Part shown: one piece after another, positions 3,928 to 28,983 of the stretch | Layout: each line of letters begins with the position of its first letter | Position numbering within the stretch: the first letter of the stretch is position 1 | Virus record (IMG/VR): IMGVR_UViG_3300007520_000051 | Coordinates: 1-31,005 of that record | Length of the DNA stretch: 31,005 nt | Direction: 5' to 3' (one strand) | DNA from: a virus | Taxonomy: Duplodnaviria; Caudoviricetes | Translations under genes and position numbers: made by a program | The notes under the pieces: generated by a model | The model's input: the letters and a program-made list of their open reading frames with translations, nothing else | Databases searched by the model: none | Told to the model about the DNA's origin: nothing

Positions 3928-4716
3928 ATGCTAACTAACCAATACAAAAGCATCAATAAAGAAGTTTTAGACTTTATGGTTACTTTGATACCCAGTAAAG
4001 ATAAATATTTAAATACTCACTTTAGAAGGCTTGCTAGAACTGTAGAAGTAATACTCGATCAAAAACCTACTGGAAAGCTTTTAGAAATAGGTACAAGTGG
4101 AGTAATACCTATCGTGTTGGATAAGTTTGCACCTGATCTAGAAGTAGTAGTTACAGAGTTTGATCTAAAGCAACCTAAAAAAGGATCAACAACCGTTCAA
4201 GTAGGTAAGTATAAAAAAACTTTAGAATGCTACAGAGTAAATCTAGAGTCTACAAAACTTCCAGCAAAAGATGAATCTTTTGATTATGTTGTTTGCTCGG
4301 AAGTAATTGAACATTTGGAAAGAGATCCCATGTTCATGCTTAAAGAAATAAACAGGGTACTAAAAACAAGTAAAAGTCTTATATTAACTACGCCTAATGT
4401 TGTTAGTAGTAGAGGTATTACAAAAATGCTTTTAGGTATTGAACCTTACTTTTACATGCAATACAACAGAGATTTATCTTTATATAGACATAACTATGAA
4501 TACAGCATTCACTCTCTAACTAAACTTTTAAAAGCAGCTGGCTTTGACGGAAGCGCTTGGACTGAAGATACTTTTGAAGATCCAATTATGAAAGACATCC
4601 AGAAACTAAGAAGTATAGGTTATCCAATGAATCACATTGGTGACAATATTTTTACAGTTTCTAGTAAAGTATCTGCCCCCACAGGGGAATATCCAGATTG
4701 GATATACGCAGGCTAA
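3928..4716 (+). CDS. Class I SAM-dependent methyltransferase (Methyltransf_11-like)
   Basis: LLEIG motif I; LP..DESFDYVVCSEVIEHL...P..ML.EI.RVLK..LILTTPN. Confidence 0.88.
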   Translation: MLTNQYKSINKEVLDFMVTLIPSKDKYLNTHFRRLARTVEVILDQKPTGKLLEIGTSGVIPIVLDKFAPDLEVVVTEFDLKQPKKGSTTVQVGKYKKTLECYRVNLESTKLPAKDESFDYVVCSEVIEHLERDPMFMLKEINRVLKTSKSLILTTPNVVSSRGITKMLLGIEPYFYMQYNRDLSLYRHNYEYSIHSLTKLLKAAGFDGSAWTEDTFEDPIMKDIQKLRSIGYPMNHIGDNIFTVSSKVSAPTGEYPDWIYAG

Positions 4717-7369: not shown

Positions 7370-7378
7370 TTATCCACA
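7370..7378 (+). promoter_or_regulatory. DnaA box (TTATCCACA)
   Basis: Perfect consensus in an AT-rich intergenic region; near-match CTGTCCACA at 7282-7290. Confidence 0.5.
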
Positions 7379-7778: not shown

Positions 7779-7844
7779 CACACACAAACCTTTTTTCCTG
7801 GCTTCTTCCTCCTCCTTTTATAAAGGAAAGAGAGCGCGAAAAAA
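7778..7844. repeat. Hairpin repeat, copy 1
   Basis: ACACACAC-AAA..T6..CCTC..TAAAGGAAAGAGAGCGCGAAAAAA; 24 bp (7821-7844) identical to copy 2. Confidence 0.85.
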
Positions 7845-7894: not shown

Positions 7895-8143
7895 ATGGCA
7901 TACGTAAGATTTAATCGCGGATCCGATCTTTATTTATTTATGTCCCCCTCAGGTTTAACTTGTTGTGGCTGTAGACTCTTATCGATCTATGCACCGTTAG
8001 AAAATGATGGTTTATCTTTTTACGCAAAATCAACACAGGAAATGATTACTCATTTAGCTTCTCACAGAGAGCTAGGCGACATGGTCCCAATGGGGATTGA
8101 AGAGAGTTTATTAAATGACGACAAAAATAACTACCCAACATAG
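7895..8143 (+). CDS. Hypothetical phage protein (MAYxRF...SDxY...CCGC, putative metal-binding)
   Basis: AAGGAG RBS; Cys/His cluster. Confidence 0.7.
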   Translation: MAYVRFNRGSDLYLFMSPSGLTCCGCRLLSIYAPLENDGLSFYAKSTQEMITHLASHRELGDMVPMGIEESLLNDDKNNYPT

Positions 8144-9137
8144 TTTTACATTTGCTGATCTGTTTGCTGGTATTGGTGGCATGCGTATCGGTTTCGAAGC
8201 AGTTGGTGGAGAGTGCGTATTAACCAGCGAAATTGATCAAAAAGCTATGGAAACATATAGTGCCAATTTTATTGACTCAGAGTCTCATAAATTTGTTGCA
8301 GACGTAACCAAGTTAACTAGAGAAGACTTTCCAGAAAACCTTGACGTATTAGTTGCAGGTTTTCCATGTCAGCCTTACAGCATGGCTGGACCACGTAGAG
8401 GACTAGAAGACAAACGCGGCGGAGATATCTTTGATGCTCTAATGCACCTACTTAAAGAAGTAAAGCCAAGAGCATTTCTTTTTGAAAACGTAAAAGGCGT
8501 ACTTGGTCATGACGAAGGCAAGACGCTAGATCACATGCTTGGTCTCATGCTTGATCAGGGTTATCATGTTAGATACGAGACCTTAAACTCAATGACTCAT
8601 GCAAACATCCCTCAAAACCGTGAGCGAGTATTTTTTGTTGGCTTTAGATATCCATACGAAGCAAAAATCTTTAACTACCCAAAACCAGTAGAGCTTACAA
8701 AAACTATCTCTGACTGCTTTGAAAAAGGTCTTGTAGACGACAAGTTTTACTACACAGATAGAACAGAAGTTGGGAAGCTAATTCAGCACCACATTAAAGA
8801 AAAAGACACTATCTACCAGTGGCGTAGAAGCTACGCTCGCGATAATAAGAGTAACGTCTGCCCAACACTAACTGCCAACATGGGAACAGGTGGAAACAAC
8901 GTACCAATCATTGTTGATGACTCTGGGCCACGTAAACTAACTCCAAGAGAAGTATCTAACTTCCAGGGCTTCCCAGAAGAGTTTATTCTGCCTCTTATGG
9001 GACTTAGCAATCTGTACAAGCAATTTGGCAATAGCGTTACCGTTCCTTTAATTTCCCGCGTAGCTGCCCAGATCAAACAAACCCTAGACACACCCACAAA
9101 TTTTTCCCTGATGCATCCTCCTCCTACTCATAGGTAA
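8115..9137 (+). CDS. Orphan C5 cytosine DNA methyltransferase (M.Bsp6I/GCNGC-like)
   Basis: Motifs FAGIGG, GFPCQ, ENV, QNRERVF, GNSV; target-recognition domain (TRD) YQWRR...NKSNVCPTLTANMGTGG.NVP. Confidence 0.93.
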   Translation: MTTKITTQHSFTFADLFAGIGGMRIGFEAVGGECVLTSEIDQKAMETYSANFIDSESHKFVADVTKLTREDFPENLDVLVAGFPCQPYSMAGPRRGLEDKRGGDIFDALMHLLKEVKPRAFLFENVKGVLGHDEGKTLDHMLGLMLDQGYHVRYETLNSMTHANIPQNRERVFFVGFRYPYEAKIFNYPKPVELTKTISDCFEKGLVDDKFYYTDRTEVGKLIQHHIKEKDTIYQWRRSYARDNKSNVCPTLTANMGTGGNNVPIIVDDSGPRKLTPREVSNFQGFPEEFILPLMGLSNLYKQFGNSVTVPLISRVAAQIKQTLDTPTNFSLMHPPPTHR

Positions 9138-9158
9138 AGGAAAGAGAGCGCGAAAAAA
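9088..9158. repeat. Hairpin repeat, copy 2 (overlaps the MTase 3' end)
   Basis: ACACACCCACAAATTTTT..CCTCCTCC..TAAAGGAAAGAGAGCGCGAAAAAA. Confidence 0.85.
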
Positions 9159-9917: not shown

Positions 9918-9951
9918 GCCTTGTCGGGGTCCCTTAATCTAAGTGCGAGGC
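9901..9951. other. Long inverted repeat/hairpin over a stop codon
   Basis: GCCTCGCACT (9901-9910)/AGTGCGAGGC (9942-9951) is a perfect 10-bp stem, plus ATTAAG/CTTAAT. Confidence 0.6.
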
Positions 9952-10065
9952 AATCTGACGCCCACTAGAGCCATGACGCTCTATTCAGTGTCTAACTACC
10001 ATCCTAGATAGTTTCAATTTAATTATATAAAACAATAAAGGCAGCTACTCCTGCAGAAAAGCCAA

Positions 10066-10131
10066 ACACACACACACAATTTTTTTTAAAGCGTCCTCTC
10101 GCGTTTATAACGGGAAGAGAGCGCGAAAAAA
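10066..10131. repeat. Hairpin repeat, copy 3
   Basis: (AC)n-AATTTTTTTT..CCTCTC..TATAACGGGAAGAGAGCGCGAAAAAA. Confidence 0.8.
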
Positions 10132-10144
10132 TGCGGTAATTAAC

Positions 10145-10354
10145 TTAACTTTCTCCACGAAGATGCTTCTCATAGATCACTTCTCGATTACCCAATTTTA
10201 ATTTTCTACTAACTCGTCTCTTTCCAGTTGAAATAACTAATGACATAGGAATTTGAGTTGTCTTGCCCTCGACGTAGTCAGCTCGCGCTTTTCCTAACTC
10301 GATTGGGATGCCCAGAGAATTAAATGCCTCTTTAGCTAAAGTCTCACTTGTCAT
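10145..10354 (-). pseudogene. C-terminal fragment resembling a DUF6088/AbiEi-like type IV antitoxin
   Basis: LAKEAF..LG....G.A...Y..GKTTQIPM...ISTG.RRVSRKL..G...V.YE; the N-terminal HTH half is missing and replaced by a tandem repeat. Confidence 0.5.
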
Positions 10355-10429
10355 TTGTGTACACAATTAATGTTTAATGCTCATTTTGTGTACACAATTA
10401 ATGTTTAATGCTCATTTTGTGTACACAAT
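10351..10429. repeat. 31-bp tandem repeat (about 2.6 copies), each with palindrome TTGTGTACACAA
   Basis: Palindromes at 10355-10366, 10386-10397 and 10417-10428. Confidence 0.9.
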
Positions 10430-10624
10430 GTACCAGTTTGAACTGTTCGGGATTTCCGTACAGTTGGGGGATTAGTCGCACTAGTCATGGGGATTTAGTC
10501 GGTTTGATTCTTATTCTAGCCTATAGTCTCATTTTGAAAAGATTAAGAACAGTTATCGGGCTAAGAATTACTTTCTAAATAGTAAGATAAGATATATCTA
10601 ACTCTACAGGAGGCAGGTGCTGAC

Positions 10625-10852
10625 ATGTACATGGACTCAGCTACCCCCGACAATAAAGTTGCAACTATTGGCGACGTTAACGCTGGTCCAGGAGGAGGCG
10701 GTGGAAGTGATTTAATGGATTTAATCAGTGGAGAACACTTTAAAATCCTAACCGAGCCCTTCGCAGAAGTACTGACTGAACTAGGAATTGTCTGGAAGGA
10801 AACAGAATTCCCACTCGCAATGCCAGTTGAAACAACAAACGAACTGTGTTGA
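10625..10852 (+). CDS. Hypothetical protein, possibly a structural-gene fragment
   Basis: AGGAGG upstream; NKVATIGD plus a poly-Gly linker of the kind seen in phage fibre proteins. Confidence 0.4.
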   Translation: MYMDSATPDNKVATIGDVNAGPGGGGGSDLMDLISGEHFKILTEPFAEVLTELGIVWKETEFPLAMPVETTNELC

Positions 10853-11131
10853 CTAATCCCCCAACTCATGCAGATTTTGCAACAATTCAAACTTGTACAG
10901 GTTTTTGTACAGAAGTGATTAAGAAATACCACGCAATTCAAAGTGGACTAACATAACTGGGACTTATCTAAACCTATAACTCATACGTTATAACGTATAG
11001 GAAACAGCGAAAGCCTATAAAGAGGGAACAAAAGGTGGGGGGTTTAAGGGGTAGTGAGGGAACTGGTTGCAGGGTAGCGTAGAAGATGGTTGTGAGGTAG
11101 CGCAAATTGTTTGCAAGTAAAATTAAATCAA

Positions 11132-11210
11132 GGGGCAGGAAGGTTTCGACTAACTGTAAAACCGCATGACGGTCTATGTTAGGACAGGGGTTCGATTCCC
11201 CTCTGCTCCA
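11132..11210 (+). ncRNA. Mini-tmRNA (tRNA-like domain only, no tag ORF)
   Basis: Acceptor stem GGGGCAG/CTGCTCC-A with G3:U70; GAAGGTTTCGAC D-loop region; P2a CTAAC/GTTAG; GAC; T-arm AGGGG-TTCGATT-CCCCT; TAAAAT -10 at 11118-11123. Confidence 0.85.
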
Positions 11211-11215
11211 CGAAT

Positions 11216-11250
11216 GACAAATGCGTACCGTTTGCAGTACGGTTTTGTCA
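11216..11250 (+). terminator. Hairpin downstream of the mini-tmRNA (terminator or processing signal)
   Basis: TGACAAA/TTTGTCA outer stem with CGTAC/GTACG inner stem; no clear U-tail. Confidence 0.4.
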
Positions 11251-11280
11251 CGGTAAAGGAATAGGCTAAGTTGTAAAAAG

Positions 11281-11289
11281 TTATCCACA
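11281..11289 (+). promoter_or_regulatory. DnaA box (TTATCCACA)
   Basis: Perfect consensus; shares TTATCCACAGGCT (13 bp) with the 7370 site. Confidence 0.5.
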
Positions 11290-11376
11290 GGCTAGGCAGT
11301 TGCTTTTTGCTATTTTTCTGTATACATTTAAGTCTAACTATGTACGTGTAAACGACAAAAAGACAGGATAATTATT

Positions 11377-11877
11377 ATGGACAATAGTGTTAAATACCTA
11401 AATACCACTGCAAATCACTTTGAACATTGCGATTGGGACTACACCAGGTTGTCCCACATTAAATCTATTAAATATGAATCAAAGCATGATAAAACAAATT
11501 CATTTTTATTTAGACTAAAAAGTGTCCTTAGGTGGCTATTCGGTCCAACACCTAATTTCATTAAAGAACTAGAACCAACTTTGCTTGGAAGAACTAAAAA
11601 TCGTATCTGCATAGCATATTTTTTATTTATTAAAGAAAAGAATGTTCCAGATGGAGTTTTATTAAACAGTGGTGGAGTTATTACTGAGTGGGAGGAGACT
11701 GGAGAGTATCTTCAGCTAGTACAACCCTCTGTAGGAGCTCTATTAGCTGATTTCCTTAAGGAAGACCCAGAGCACCCTCATGCCAAGATAATTACTGCTG
11801 AACTCGATCGAATTATAGAAAGATATAATGAAAGAGTGATTAATGGAGAAGTAGATGGAAACAGGCGAAATGTCTAA
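11377..11877 (+). CDS. Hypothetical protein
   Basis: 166-aa ORF with AGGA RBS; C-terminal P.VG.LLAD.L pattern. Confidence 0.7.
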   Translation: MDNSVKYLNTTANHFEHCDWDYTRLSHIKSIKYESKHDKTNSFLFRLKSVLRWLFGPTPNFIKELEPTLLGRTKNRICIAYFLFIKEKNVPDGVLLNSGGVITEWEETGEYLQLVQPSVGALLADFLKEDPEHPHAKIITAELDRIIERYNERVINGEVDGNRRNV

Positions 11878-27573: not shown

Positions 27574-28983
27574 ATGGCTATTAATTTTCCAGACACACCA
27601 ACTCTAAACCAACAGTATTCTTTTGGATTTAACACCTGGGAGTGGGATGGAGTTGCTTGGCAACTTGTTATTTCTGAGGTAGTTGGTCCAACGGGGCCTA
27701 CTGGTCCTACAGGTAACGCATCAACAGTTACAGGTCCTACAGGTTCTACAGGTAACTTTAATACAGTTTCTGATACCCCTCCTGCAGATCCAGACCCAGG
27801 TGATGCTTGGTTTAACTCAGCTACAGGTCAAATATATGTATATTATGACGGTTTTTGGATTGAATCTGCTTCTAGCAGTATCGGACCGCAAGGACCAACG
27901 GGTGCAACCGGGCCTATCGGAGATGCGAGCACGGTAACTGGTCCTACTGGACCTACAGGTTCAACTGGTGCAACAGGATCTATAGGTCAAACGGGTCCCA
28001 CAGGTCTATCAGTTACTGGCCCAACTGGACCAACTGGACCAAGAGGGTCAACTGGACCACAGGGAGTTACTGGACCTGATGGTCAACAAGGTGTTATTGG
28101 ACCGCAAGGGTCAGCTGGTGATATCGGTTCTCAAGGTATTGAAGGACCAACTGGGCCTACTGGCGCTACTGGGTCTCAGGGTCCGCAGGGTCCTACTGGA
28201 GTTAGAGGTTTTACAGGATTTACAGGACCGCAAGGTGCTACAGGTGCTACGGGTGCATCTGTTACTGGATCTACGGGACCTAGCGGACCAACTGGTCCTA
28301 GTGGCGGGCCAACTGGACCAACGGGTTCTACAGGTGCTACAGGTGCTACAGGTATTCAAGGCGAGACTGGTCTTAGAGGTGTAACTGGTGCAACGGGTGC
28401 TACAGGTGCTGCCTCAACAATTGCAGGTCCAACGGGCGCTACGGGACCAACTGGCCCTATATCCACACAGCCGTCAGTGACCCCTGGCCCAACTGGTCCG
28501 ACGGGTGCAACGGGTGCTGCTTCTCAGGTAACAGGACCAACTGGTGCACTAGGCCCAACTGGTCCGACGGGTGCAACGGGTGCTGCTTCTCAGGTAACAG
28601 GACCAACTGGTGCACTAGGCCCAACTGGTCTAACGGGTGCTAATTCAGTAGTACCTGGACCACCATTTTATGATCTAGTAGTTGCTTCAGCTAGTGGAAC
28701 TAGTTACACGTTATCTCTCGATGATAGAGGGGATCTAGTACAAACAATTGGATCTGCTGCTGTATCAGTTATTATTCCTACGGATGCAAGCGTACTTTTC
28801 CCTACAGGAGCTCAAATTCTTCTTGTGCAAGGAGGGGAAGGGCAAGTAACTATAACTGAAGCTGTAGGTGTAACTTTAGTGTCAGAAGGTAGTAGAAGAA
28901 AAATTAAATCTCAATATGGCGTTGCTTCACTAATTAAATTATCTTCGAATAGATGGCTTTTAACTGGAAACATAGTGTCTTAA
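27574..28983 (+). CDS. Collagen-like fibre protein
   Basis: MAINFP module; GDAWF module; C-terminal SYTL...D...V.IP.DA.V.FP.G..I...Q.G.GQV...W.L.G domain. Confidence 0.85.
28486..28630 (+). repeat. 66-bp tandem duplication
   Basis: GGCCCAACTGGTC... recurs at 28486, 28552 and 28618. Confidence 0.85.

Follow-up and report, generated by a model that had tools for sequence, protein, structure and literature searches.

What is the role of a phage tmRNA gene that has both ends of the molecule and none of the message in between? The stretch of DNA analysed here (the window) is the whole 31,005 nt of its record, and a sequence-only reading of it had placed a 79-nt tag-less mini-tmRNA gene, running from G1 to the discriminator A, at 11132-11210 on the + strand, with an acceptor stem, a stemless D region, helix P2a, a GAC and a T arm. 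We found each of these parts in the sequence. The 5' strand of the acceptor stem (11132-11138), which holds G3, pairs with 11203-11209 at 7/7 positions, while the 3' side (11203-11210) carries U70 at 11207 and the discriminator A73 at 11210, confirming the proposed G3:U70 wobble and discriminator A. G3:U70 together with A73 specifies charging by AlaRS. The stemless D region (11139-11150) ends in the tmRNA-type UUCGAC motif and fits the RF00023 consensus; judged from the TLD literature (PMC3929946, accessible text), it is the predicted SmpB-binding face. A closed P2 arm (11150-11182), supported by covariation, consists of P2a (11150-54/11178-82), an A-rich internal loop and a tip hairpin (11161-64/11170-73) with a 5-nt loop, a layout shared with DS6A. 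The GAC connector (11183-85) and T arm (11186-11202), together 11183-11202, are supported by sequence, RF00023 and the alignment. All of these elements lie on the + strand. The P2 region is where pseudoknots and the tag frame normally lie, and here, as had been claimed, 23 nt closed by the tip hairpin separate the two P2a strands; pseudoknots and an mRNA-like domain (resume codon, tag frame, stop codon) are absent from the gene. Both tmRNA ends are present in standard order with a complete tRNA-like domain, and CCA is not encoded, again as had been claimed, since A11210 is followed by CGA.

A search with the Rfam tmRNA model RF00023 (gathering cut-off 47 bits) matched 11132-11213(+) at 57.8 bits with an E-value of 2.4e-20. 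The match covers model positions 1-374, with 17 nt standing for 308 consensus positions, so that both ends of the model were matched and the middle was skipped, the outcome that the sequence-only reading had expected. Our family model R1 scores the gene at 87.4 bits, the window itself being part of the R1 alignment, and ARAGORN called 0 tRNA or tmRNA genes in the window. Since the isolated fold of the gene is only modestly stable (z = -2.0, with 6/200 shuffles equally stable), the case for the gene rests on comparison.

The gene content of the window is that of a tailed phage (37 ORFs scanned), and the record is approximately 23% complete by CheckV. Its proteins include a terminase, a class II ribonucleotide reductase, a primase-polymerase, an M23 endolysin, collagen-like tail proteins, a polynucleotide-kinase-type phosphatase and a serine recombinase. 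The host is probably an actinobacterium on these sequence grounds, because the terminase has 75% identity to that of the freshwater Actinomycetia phage DSL-LC01 and the other best protein matches are to Microbacterium, Gordonia and Arthrobacter phages. DSL-LC01 itself gave no RF00023 match. Sequencing runs with large shares of the window are freshwater, estuary and salt-lake metagenomes. An identical longer assembly of 48.9 kb (37% complete) adds 16 kb upstream of the window, with one tRNA-Arg, and smpB (PF01668) was found neither in the window, 23% complete, nor in this assembly.

Assembly collapse, which the sequence-only reading had named as a way in which it could fail, is ruled out by the other sequencing runs. 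The short form was present in 4/4 sequencing runs examined (of 13 runs with the sequence), and 5/5 metagenome matches to the first 23 nt of the gene are also of the short form. A contig of 92 nt in each of runs X2, X3 and X7 covers 11120-11211 and has 0 differences from the window, and a 540-nt contig of run X5 matches 11132-11211, likewise with 0 differences. Other contigs of the examined runs carry paired changes in P2a (11152 with 11180, 11153 with 11179); the one from X3 has a depth below 5 and may hold errors, and those from X7 have a depth of 11-14.

Comparison of related strains indicates that the gene is held more tightly than the DNA around it. L292 matches 10803-11275 at 88% identity, yet it has 0 changes in the mini gene. 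L293 and L295 have only 11120-11211 in common with the window and carry 3 changes each: all 3 fall in the tip loop in L293, while L295 has one loop change and one compensatory pair (11164/11170 in the tip hairpin), the latter found also in L027. For L252, L253 and one X5 contig the match to the window begins only at 11276, and no mini gene lies within 990 and 508 nt upstream in L252 and L253, respectively. From this comparison of L292, L293 and L295 with L252 and L253, the mini gene sits on an exchangeable non-coding module (10803-11275, without strand), delimited by the L292 match and the L252/L253/X5 breakpoint, and is more conserved than its flanks. L253 is also without approximately 400 nt of a 166-aa ORF at 11377-11877 (L253:683-688 against window 11455-11852).

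The wider family was collected by pattern. A strict pattern run on viral contigs returned 98 stretches, nearly all of the tag-less form, with a few att-like fragments and permuted genes. Because this pattern fixed U70, we used a second pattern that fixed no acceptor-stem base; it returned at least 119 stretches, at least 98 of them distinct, of which a pairing filter (at least 6/7 acceptor pairs and at least 4/5 T-stem pairs) passed 84 and dropped 14. Among the matches listed from this acceptor-blind scan, G3:U70 is present in 83/84 and A73 in 84/84 distinct copies, acceptor pairs 4-6 vary freely while G3:U70 holds, CCA is encoded in 24/84, and the sole exception to G3:U70, L138, appears shifted by a small deletion. 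Both pattern scans and one genome scan, taken together, gave at least 200 matches, and at least 138 different sequences among them pair perfectly in the acceptor and T stems. Among the matches listed, 117/138 distinct copies are 77-80 nt long (range 65-95), and the 138 have a median identity to the window gene of 67% and form 112 clusters at 90%. Since the listed matches of the second scan extend only to about the 28th of the 98 loci of the first, a few hundred copies in the viral collection is a fair extrapolation and not a count.

We found that the inner arm has at least 5 contiguous pairs in 95/112 clusters, compared to 4.7% of swapped controls, and that D-region length and arm length are inversely related (rho -0.53, uncorrected for kinship). 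A DS6A-type hairpin motif occurs in 37/112 clusters. Covariation was scored on 32/112 clusters, chosen for equal D-region length and with the structure supplied. In this alignment 96.6% of cells pair, both partners vary at 14/22 pairs, and covariation scores 0.64 compared to 0.14 in shuffles; G3:U70 and A73 are near-invariant also among these 32 copies, all of which share the closing pair of the mini-specific hairpin. The TTCGAC, GAC and T-loop motifs are parts of the patterns themselves, so their conservation is circular and was not used as evidence. Our data, which are sequence data, indicate that these genes are a common phage gene class of tight size and near-invariant alanine identity.

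A short RF00023 match over the cut-off is present in 49/49 viral records that carry a mini gene. smpB was found in 0/49 of these records, in 0/18 of those at least 90% complete and in 0/4 complete cultured carrier genomes (three cultured carriers and DS6A); since no phage smpB was found in the records searched, host SmpB would be needed. One of the 49 records, the 124-kb phage G004, carries both a mini gene (C1:46486-46567) and a full 392-nt tmRNA (C1:77588-77979). By BLAST, cultured carriers include the Streptomyces phages LuckySocke, GiJojo, pSt2308, BRock and Alone3 and the Stenotrophomonas phage Jojan60. Three cultured carriers score 81-90 bits with R1, and the four complete cultured genomes (these three and DS6A) have, apart from the mini gene, no tmRNA-like gene that comes close to the cut-off or passes it. 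The window gene itself gave no BLAST record among cultured phages covering 80% of the query; of four matches examined, two are short T-arm matches and the others are the GodonK and S-CAM1 genes described below. The class is strongly under-counted: ARAGORN misses the window copy, and the mini gene is annotated as RNA in 0/3 cultured carrier records. Two other unannotated tmRNAs came to light in phages, a full-length one of 529 nt scoring 90 bits in Gordonia phage GodonK (MK620899 84631-85159; L220/L247) and one of permuted type in Synechococcus phage S-CAM1 (L221).

Genes for prohead protease, capsid, portal and terminase are found repeatedly beside the mini gene, and a tRNA lies beside it in 18/80 flank loci (ARAGORN, after removal of 3 'tmRNA' calls overlapping the mini gene). 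Several copies lie within head-gene operons or tRNA arrays, a placement consistent with high expression. No ribosome-rescue factor was found among 95 flanking proteins (approximately 92/113 immediate neighbours and three cluster members). We rejected a dedicated partner gene, as these proteins fall into many clusters, the largest of which, the prohead proteases, occurs in 10 loci.

The sequence-only reading had also given the gene its own -10 box, the hexamer TAAAAT at 11118-11123 (+), and this proposal was not borne out. A sigma-70 scan called no + strand promoter at the gene, 109 hexamers equal to TAAAAT in quality lie on the + strand of the window, and the site is kept in L292 and lost in L027, L293 and L295. 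Of 110 family copies, 6 have a -10-like hexamer at a distance of 4-10 nt upstream of G1, compared to a control mean of 1.0, and a few copies may have a -10 box of their own. The downstream hairpin that had been described (11224-11241, +) is real and terminator-like, and it is kept in L292 but missing from L027, L293 and L295. In six of the 110 copies (L011, L020, L041, L071, L100 and L203) an upstream ORF ends in a stop codon that shares bases with G1 or the acceptor stem; by sequence, cleavage at G1 would make the mRNA of these six non-stop.

Several features of the surrounding DNA were observed in passing. The stretch 9918-11376 is long and mostly non-coding and is possibly an origin or recombination region. 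Within it, a 31-nt unit is repeated in tandem at 10354-10415 and has a third copy that is partial, the arms of a perfect 16-bp inverted repeat (10462-77/10851-66) flank a 75-aa ORF (10625-10852), and a 16-bp palindrome lies near 10983. Three 9-mers, at 7370, 9573 and 11281, match the DnaA-box consensus. A 27-nt direct repeat contains the 9-mers of 7370 and 11281, and its 11281 copy lies at the 11275/11276 strain breakpoint. A 38-nt repeat has three copies (7807-7844, 9121-9158 and 10094-10131), two of which flank a C-5 DNA methylase gene (8115-9137). A second structured RNA at 10900-11131 was considered and rejected (z = 0.29).

Outside viruses, the genome collection returned 20 matches: 7 minis in standard order, 11 cyanobacterial permuted genes and 2 permuted-like genes in Microvirga. 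A full tmRNA is present too in 4/5 searched genomes of this kind. A mini gene was found in 1/151 genomes of the phylum of G052, namely the centre genome only, with 30 candidates scored per genome, and an order-level search around G051 covered 1 genome. Phage-type minis of 81-82 nt with the same tip hairpin occur in the Saccharimonadia contigs L267:2962-3043 (+), L268:3049-3130 (-) and L287:2567-2647 (-); L267 and L268 score 91 and 81 bits with R1, and L268 adjoins aminoacyl-tRNA synthetase genes. A 73-nt tag-less TLD at L227:3324-3396 (+) lies approximately 570 nt from smpB (3975-4367, -), with thymidylate kinase and ThyX around it, and it is the only RF00023 match over the cut-off in its 0.5-Mb Saccharibacteria MAG; this copy may be a CDS-less tmRNA of the cell itself, or else a product of deletion or of faulty assembly.

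In Saccharimonadia we also observed a second tmRNA-like gene of 136-139 nt beside the full tmRNA in 9/151 genomes (L279-L286 and L270; for example L279:2643-2780 - and L281:2604-2742 +), and tmRNA-like forms of 71-90 nt in 6 more of the 151. The 136-139-nt RNAs have G3:U70, an encoded CCA, a long P2, a three-way junction and a conserved A-rich loop. In 3/9 this loop reads GCC followed by a stop, which may be compared with 2-residue Ala-Ala tags (PMC11915505, accessible text). The chromosomal neighbours of these second genes are CysRS, UvrA and TrmB-type regulators, and our literature search found no description of them.

We then weighed what the window gene could be. It is very improbable that the gene has no function and is what remains of an att site, debris of a recent deletion, a collapsed assembly or one half of a two-piece tmRNA. 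A serine recombinase gene does lie 640 nt downstream, att-like fragments and permuted tmRNAs were among the matches of the pattern scans, and the window holds only about 23% of the phage (CheckV). Weighing against these points are the ends in standard order with 7/7 pairs, the inner arm that is self-paired in 95/112 clusters against 4.7% of swapped controls, the short form in every run and metagenome match examined, a gene unchanged within an 88%-identical module, and the absence, from 4 complete cultured genomes, of any other tmRNA-sized match close to or above the cut-off. An att fragment of ssrA is rejected because both gene ends are present and paired, not one end only, and an att site tied to the serine recombinase because both ends are intact and the relatives have other neighbours. 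The permuted two-piece model RF04321 scores 24.6 bits (E 0.24), under its cut-off of 47, and the order is not reversed; the true permuted genes caught by the pattern scans do show reversed order, with the 3' acceptor piece upstream of the 5' piece. No second tmRNA piece was found elsewhere in the window, and since P2 closes on itself a partner is not needed. A tRNA (RF00005) is rejected as well, ARAGORN giving 0 genes and the tip loop having 5 nt, not the 7 nt of an anticodon loop; among relatives the tip loop is 4 nt in 68/112 and variable in sequence. Two further ways in which the sequence-only reading had allowed that it might fail, a two-piece partner and homologues that are all full-length, do not apply, the homologues found being short. 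Its view that this is a selected RNA and not debris is supported by the short relatives, the intact pairing and the covariation.

Our preferred reading, which we hold with moderate confidence from the sequence evidence, is that the gene may encode an RNA that is charged with alanine, works with the SmpB of the host and accepts stalled chains without giving them an SsrA tag. RNase P and the CCA-adding enzyme mature RNAs of such kind. Host RNase P and 3' nucleases would cut the transcript and the host would add CCA; host AlaRS would charge the RNA, SmpB and EF-Tu would bind it, and peptidyl transfer would follow. In stalled ribosomes the mini-tmRNA would take the position of host tmRNA and would add alanine but no SsrA degradation tag. 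After transfer there would be no message to resume, and the chain might receive more alanines from further mini-tmRNA or, alternatively, be freed by ArfB or by peptidyl-tRNA drop-off. The net effect would be competition with host trans-translation for SmpB and stalled ribosomes, and less tagging and proteolysis during infection. In favour of this reading are the retention of G3:U70 and A73, the lack of phage smpB, the inhibition reported for DS6A, and the template-free formation of polyalanine on ribosomes by TLD and SmpB in vitro (PMC3929946 and PMC2481249, accessible text). Against it, inhibition was independent of charging in the cited assay (PMC4131195, accessible text), repeated origins of minis could mean that G3:U70 is partly a legacy of full-length ancestors, the presence of both a mini and a full tmRNA in G004 is awkward for simple inhibition, and organellar tag-less tmRNAs are read as helpful (PMC11915505, accessible text). 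The gene is also dispensable at its site, because the sister strains L252 and L253 are without it there. An extension by analogy, which we consider speculative and rather doubtful, is that minis, as a widespread phage class, and host SmpB might cycle through non-stop ribosomes as an RNA-only, template-free alanine-tailing device that puts one or more alanines where the SsrA tag would go, a counterpart of RqcH in hosts without RqcH, such as Actinobacteria, and perhaps present in Saccharimonadia chromosomes. Among 3,213 Actinobacteriota genomes, arfB is listed in 2,245 and rqcH in 0 (PMC11633108 Table 1, accessible text).

Three other functions can be set against the charged, ribosome-entering RNA. 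A pure SmpB sponge, which would sequester SmpB only and for which charging and ribosome entry would be irrelevant, fits the absence of smpB from the phage records searched and an inhibition seen whether or not the RNA is chargeable, perhaps by SmpB titration (PMC4131195, accessible text). Such a sponge would need no G3:U70 pair, and since alanine identity is held (near-invariant G3:U70 and A73) while neighbouring pairs turn over, we prefer the charged RNA and regard the pure sponge as quite improbable. A decoy or stand-in, absorbing or replacing the target of enzymes or sensors that hit tRNA-Ala-like ends, tmRNA or tmRNA-SmpB, is unlikely in our estimate. A decoy of a charged RNA would likewise retain G3:U70, the length stays close to tRNA length (the 117/138 at 77-80 nt, among the matches listed), the window encodes a polynucleotide-kinase-type phosphatase, and the module is swapped between sister strains. 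Counter-defence genes are often swapped between strains. CoCoNuT defence systems, moreover, have SmpB-like domains predicted to bind tmRNA (PMC11090510, accessible text), but this link is only a prediction, the 95 flanking proteins show no recurring defence or RNA-repair neighbour, and a literature search gave no tie of phage tmRNA to a decoy function. Also unlikely is a helper role, in which the RNA would rescue ribosomes without tagging and make their recycling during infection faster, much as CDS-less tmRNAs would in mitochondria and in some plastids. The organellar RNAs co-occur with SmpB (PMC11915505, accessible text), the charging identity is retained, G004 has both forms, and the 73-nt Saccharibacteria copy lies near smpB as its MAG's only over-cut-off match, but that case is one incomplete 0.5-Mb MAG, and the accessible text of PMC11915505 states that an RNA without a stop codon cannot itself trigger release and that the DS6A form inhibited endogenous tmRNA in E. 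coli. Decoy and helper both predict charging as well. The effect of a tag-less tmRNA in a living cell, and with it phage tuning of ribosome rescue, is directly testable in the cultured phages, whose hosts are laboratory strains of Streptomyces.

Compared to known systems, the sequence-only reading went too far in calling this an undescribed system. The DS6A tmRNA is listed as 'TLD only' in Table 2 of PMC4131195, whose accessible text, citing Mao et al. 2009, states that a molecule like it strongly inhibits tmRNA and already proposes SmpB titration; the accessible text of PMC11915505 also covers the DS6A RNA. We located the DS6A gene at 28478-28560 of JN698994, and it scores 64.8 bits with R1 built without it, compared to 43.2 bits with RF00023. 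DS6A and the window gene are alike in standard order, G3:U70, A73, no encoded CCA, a genome without smpB (as far as searched), a closed P2 arm in which an A-rich loop and a tip hairpin of one type are common to both, and in size (80 and 79 nt, respectively). They differ in sequence and phage group, and DS6A is off consensus at the D region and GAC connector whereas the window gene is on consensus. With standard tmRNA (ssrA, RF00023) the window gene shares the acceptor stem, alanine identity, D region, P2a, GAC and T arm, but it is without pseudoknots, resume codon, tag frame and stop codon. The CDS-less tmRNAs of mitochondria (jakobids, oomycetes) and Mallomonadaceae plastids likewise have no tag frame and are thought to work with SmpB on incomplete mRNAs (PMC11915505, accessible text); unlike the phage RNA, which meets a full host tmRNA, they are mostly permuted and are the only tmRNA of their organelle. 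Alanine tailing by RqcH/RqcP also adds alanine to stalled chains without a template (PMC11633108, accessible text), but this is a functional analogy only, as RqcH, a protein without homology to the RNA, acts on split 50S subunits with ordinary tRNA-Ala. A 2025 tmRNA database holds 9 'standard, no CDS' entries among 97,179 sequences, 79 of which are from phages, and further CDS-less phage entries, at most 9 in all, may be among those 79 (PMC11915505, accessible text). In the literature searched, mostly without subscription journals, we found no description of tag-less phage tmRNAs as a widespread family. Taken together, our sequence comparisons indicate that the window gene is a DS6A-type TLD-only tmRNA and not a standard or permuted tmRNA; what is new here is the breadth of the family (at least 138 distinct sequences compared to 9 in the database), its size constraint, its alanine identity and its cultured Streptomyces carriers.
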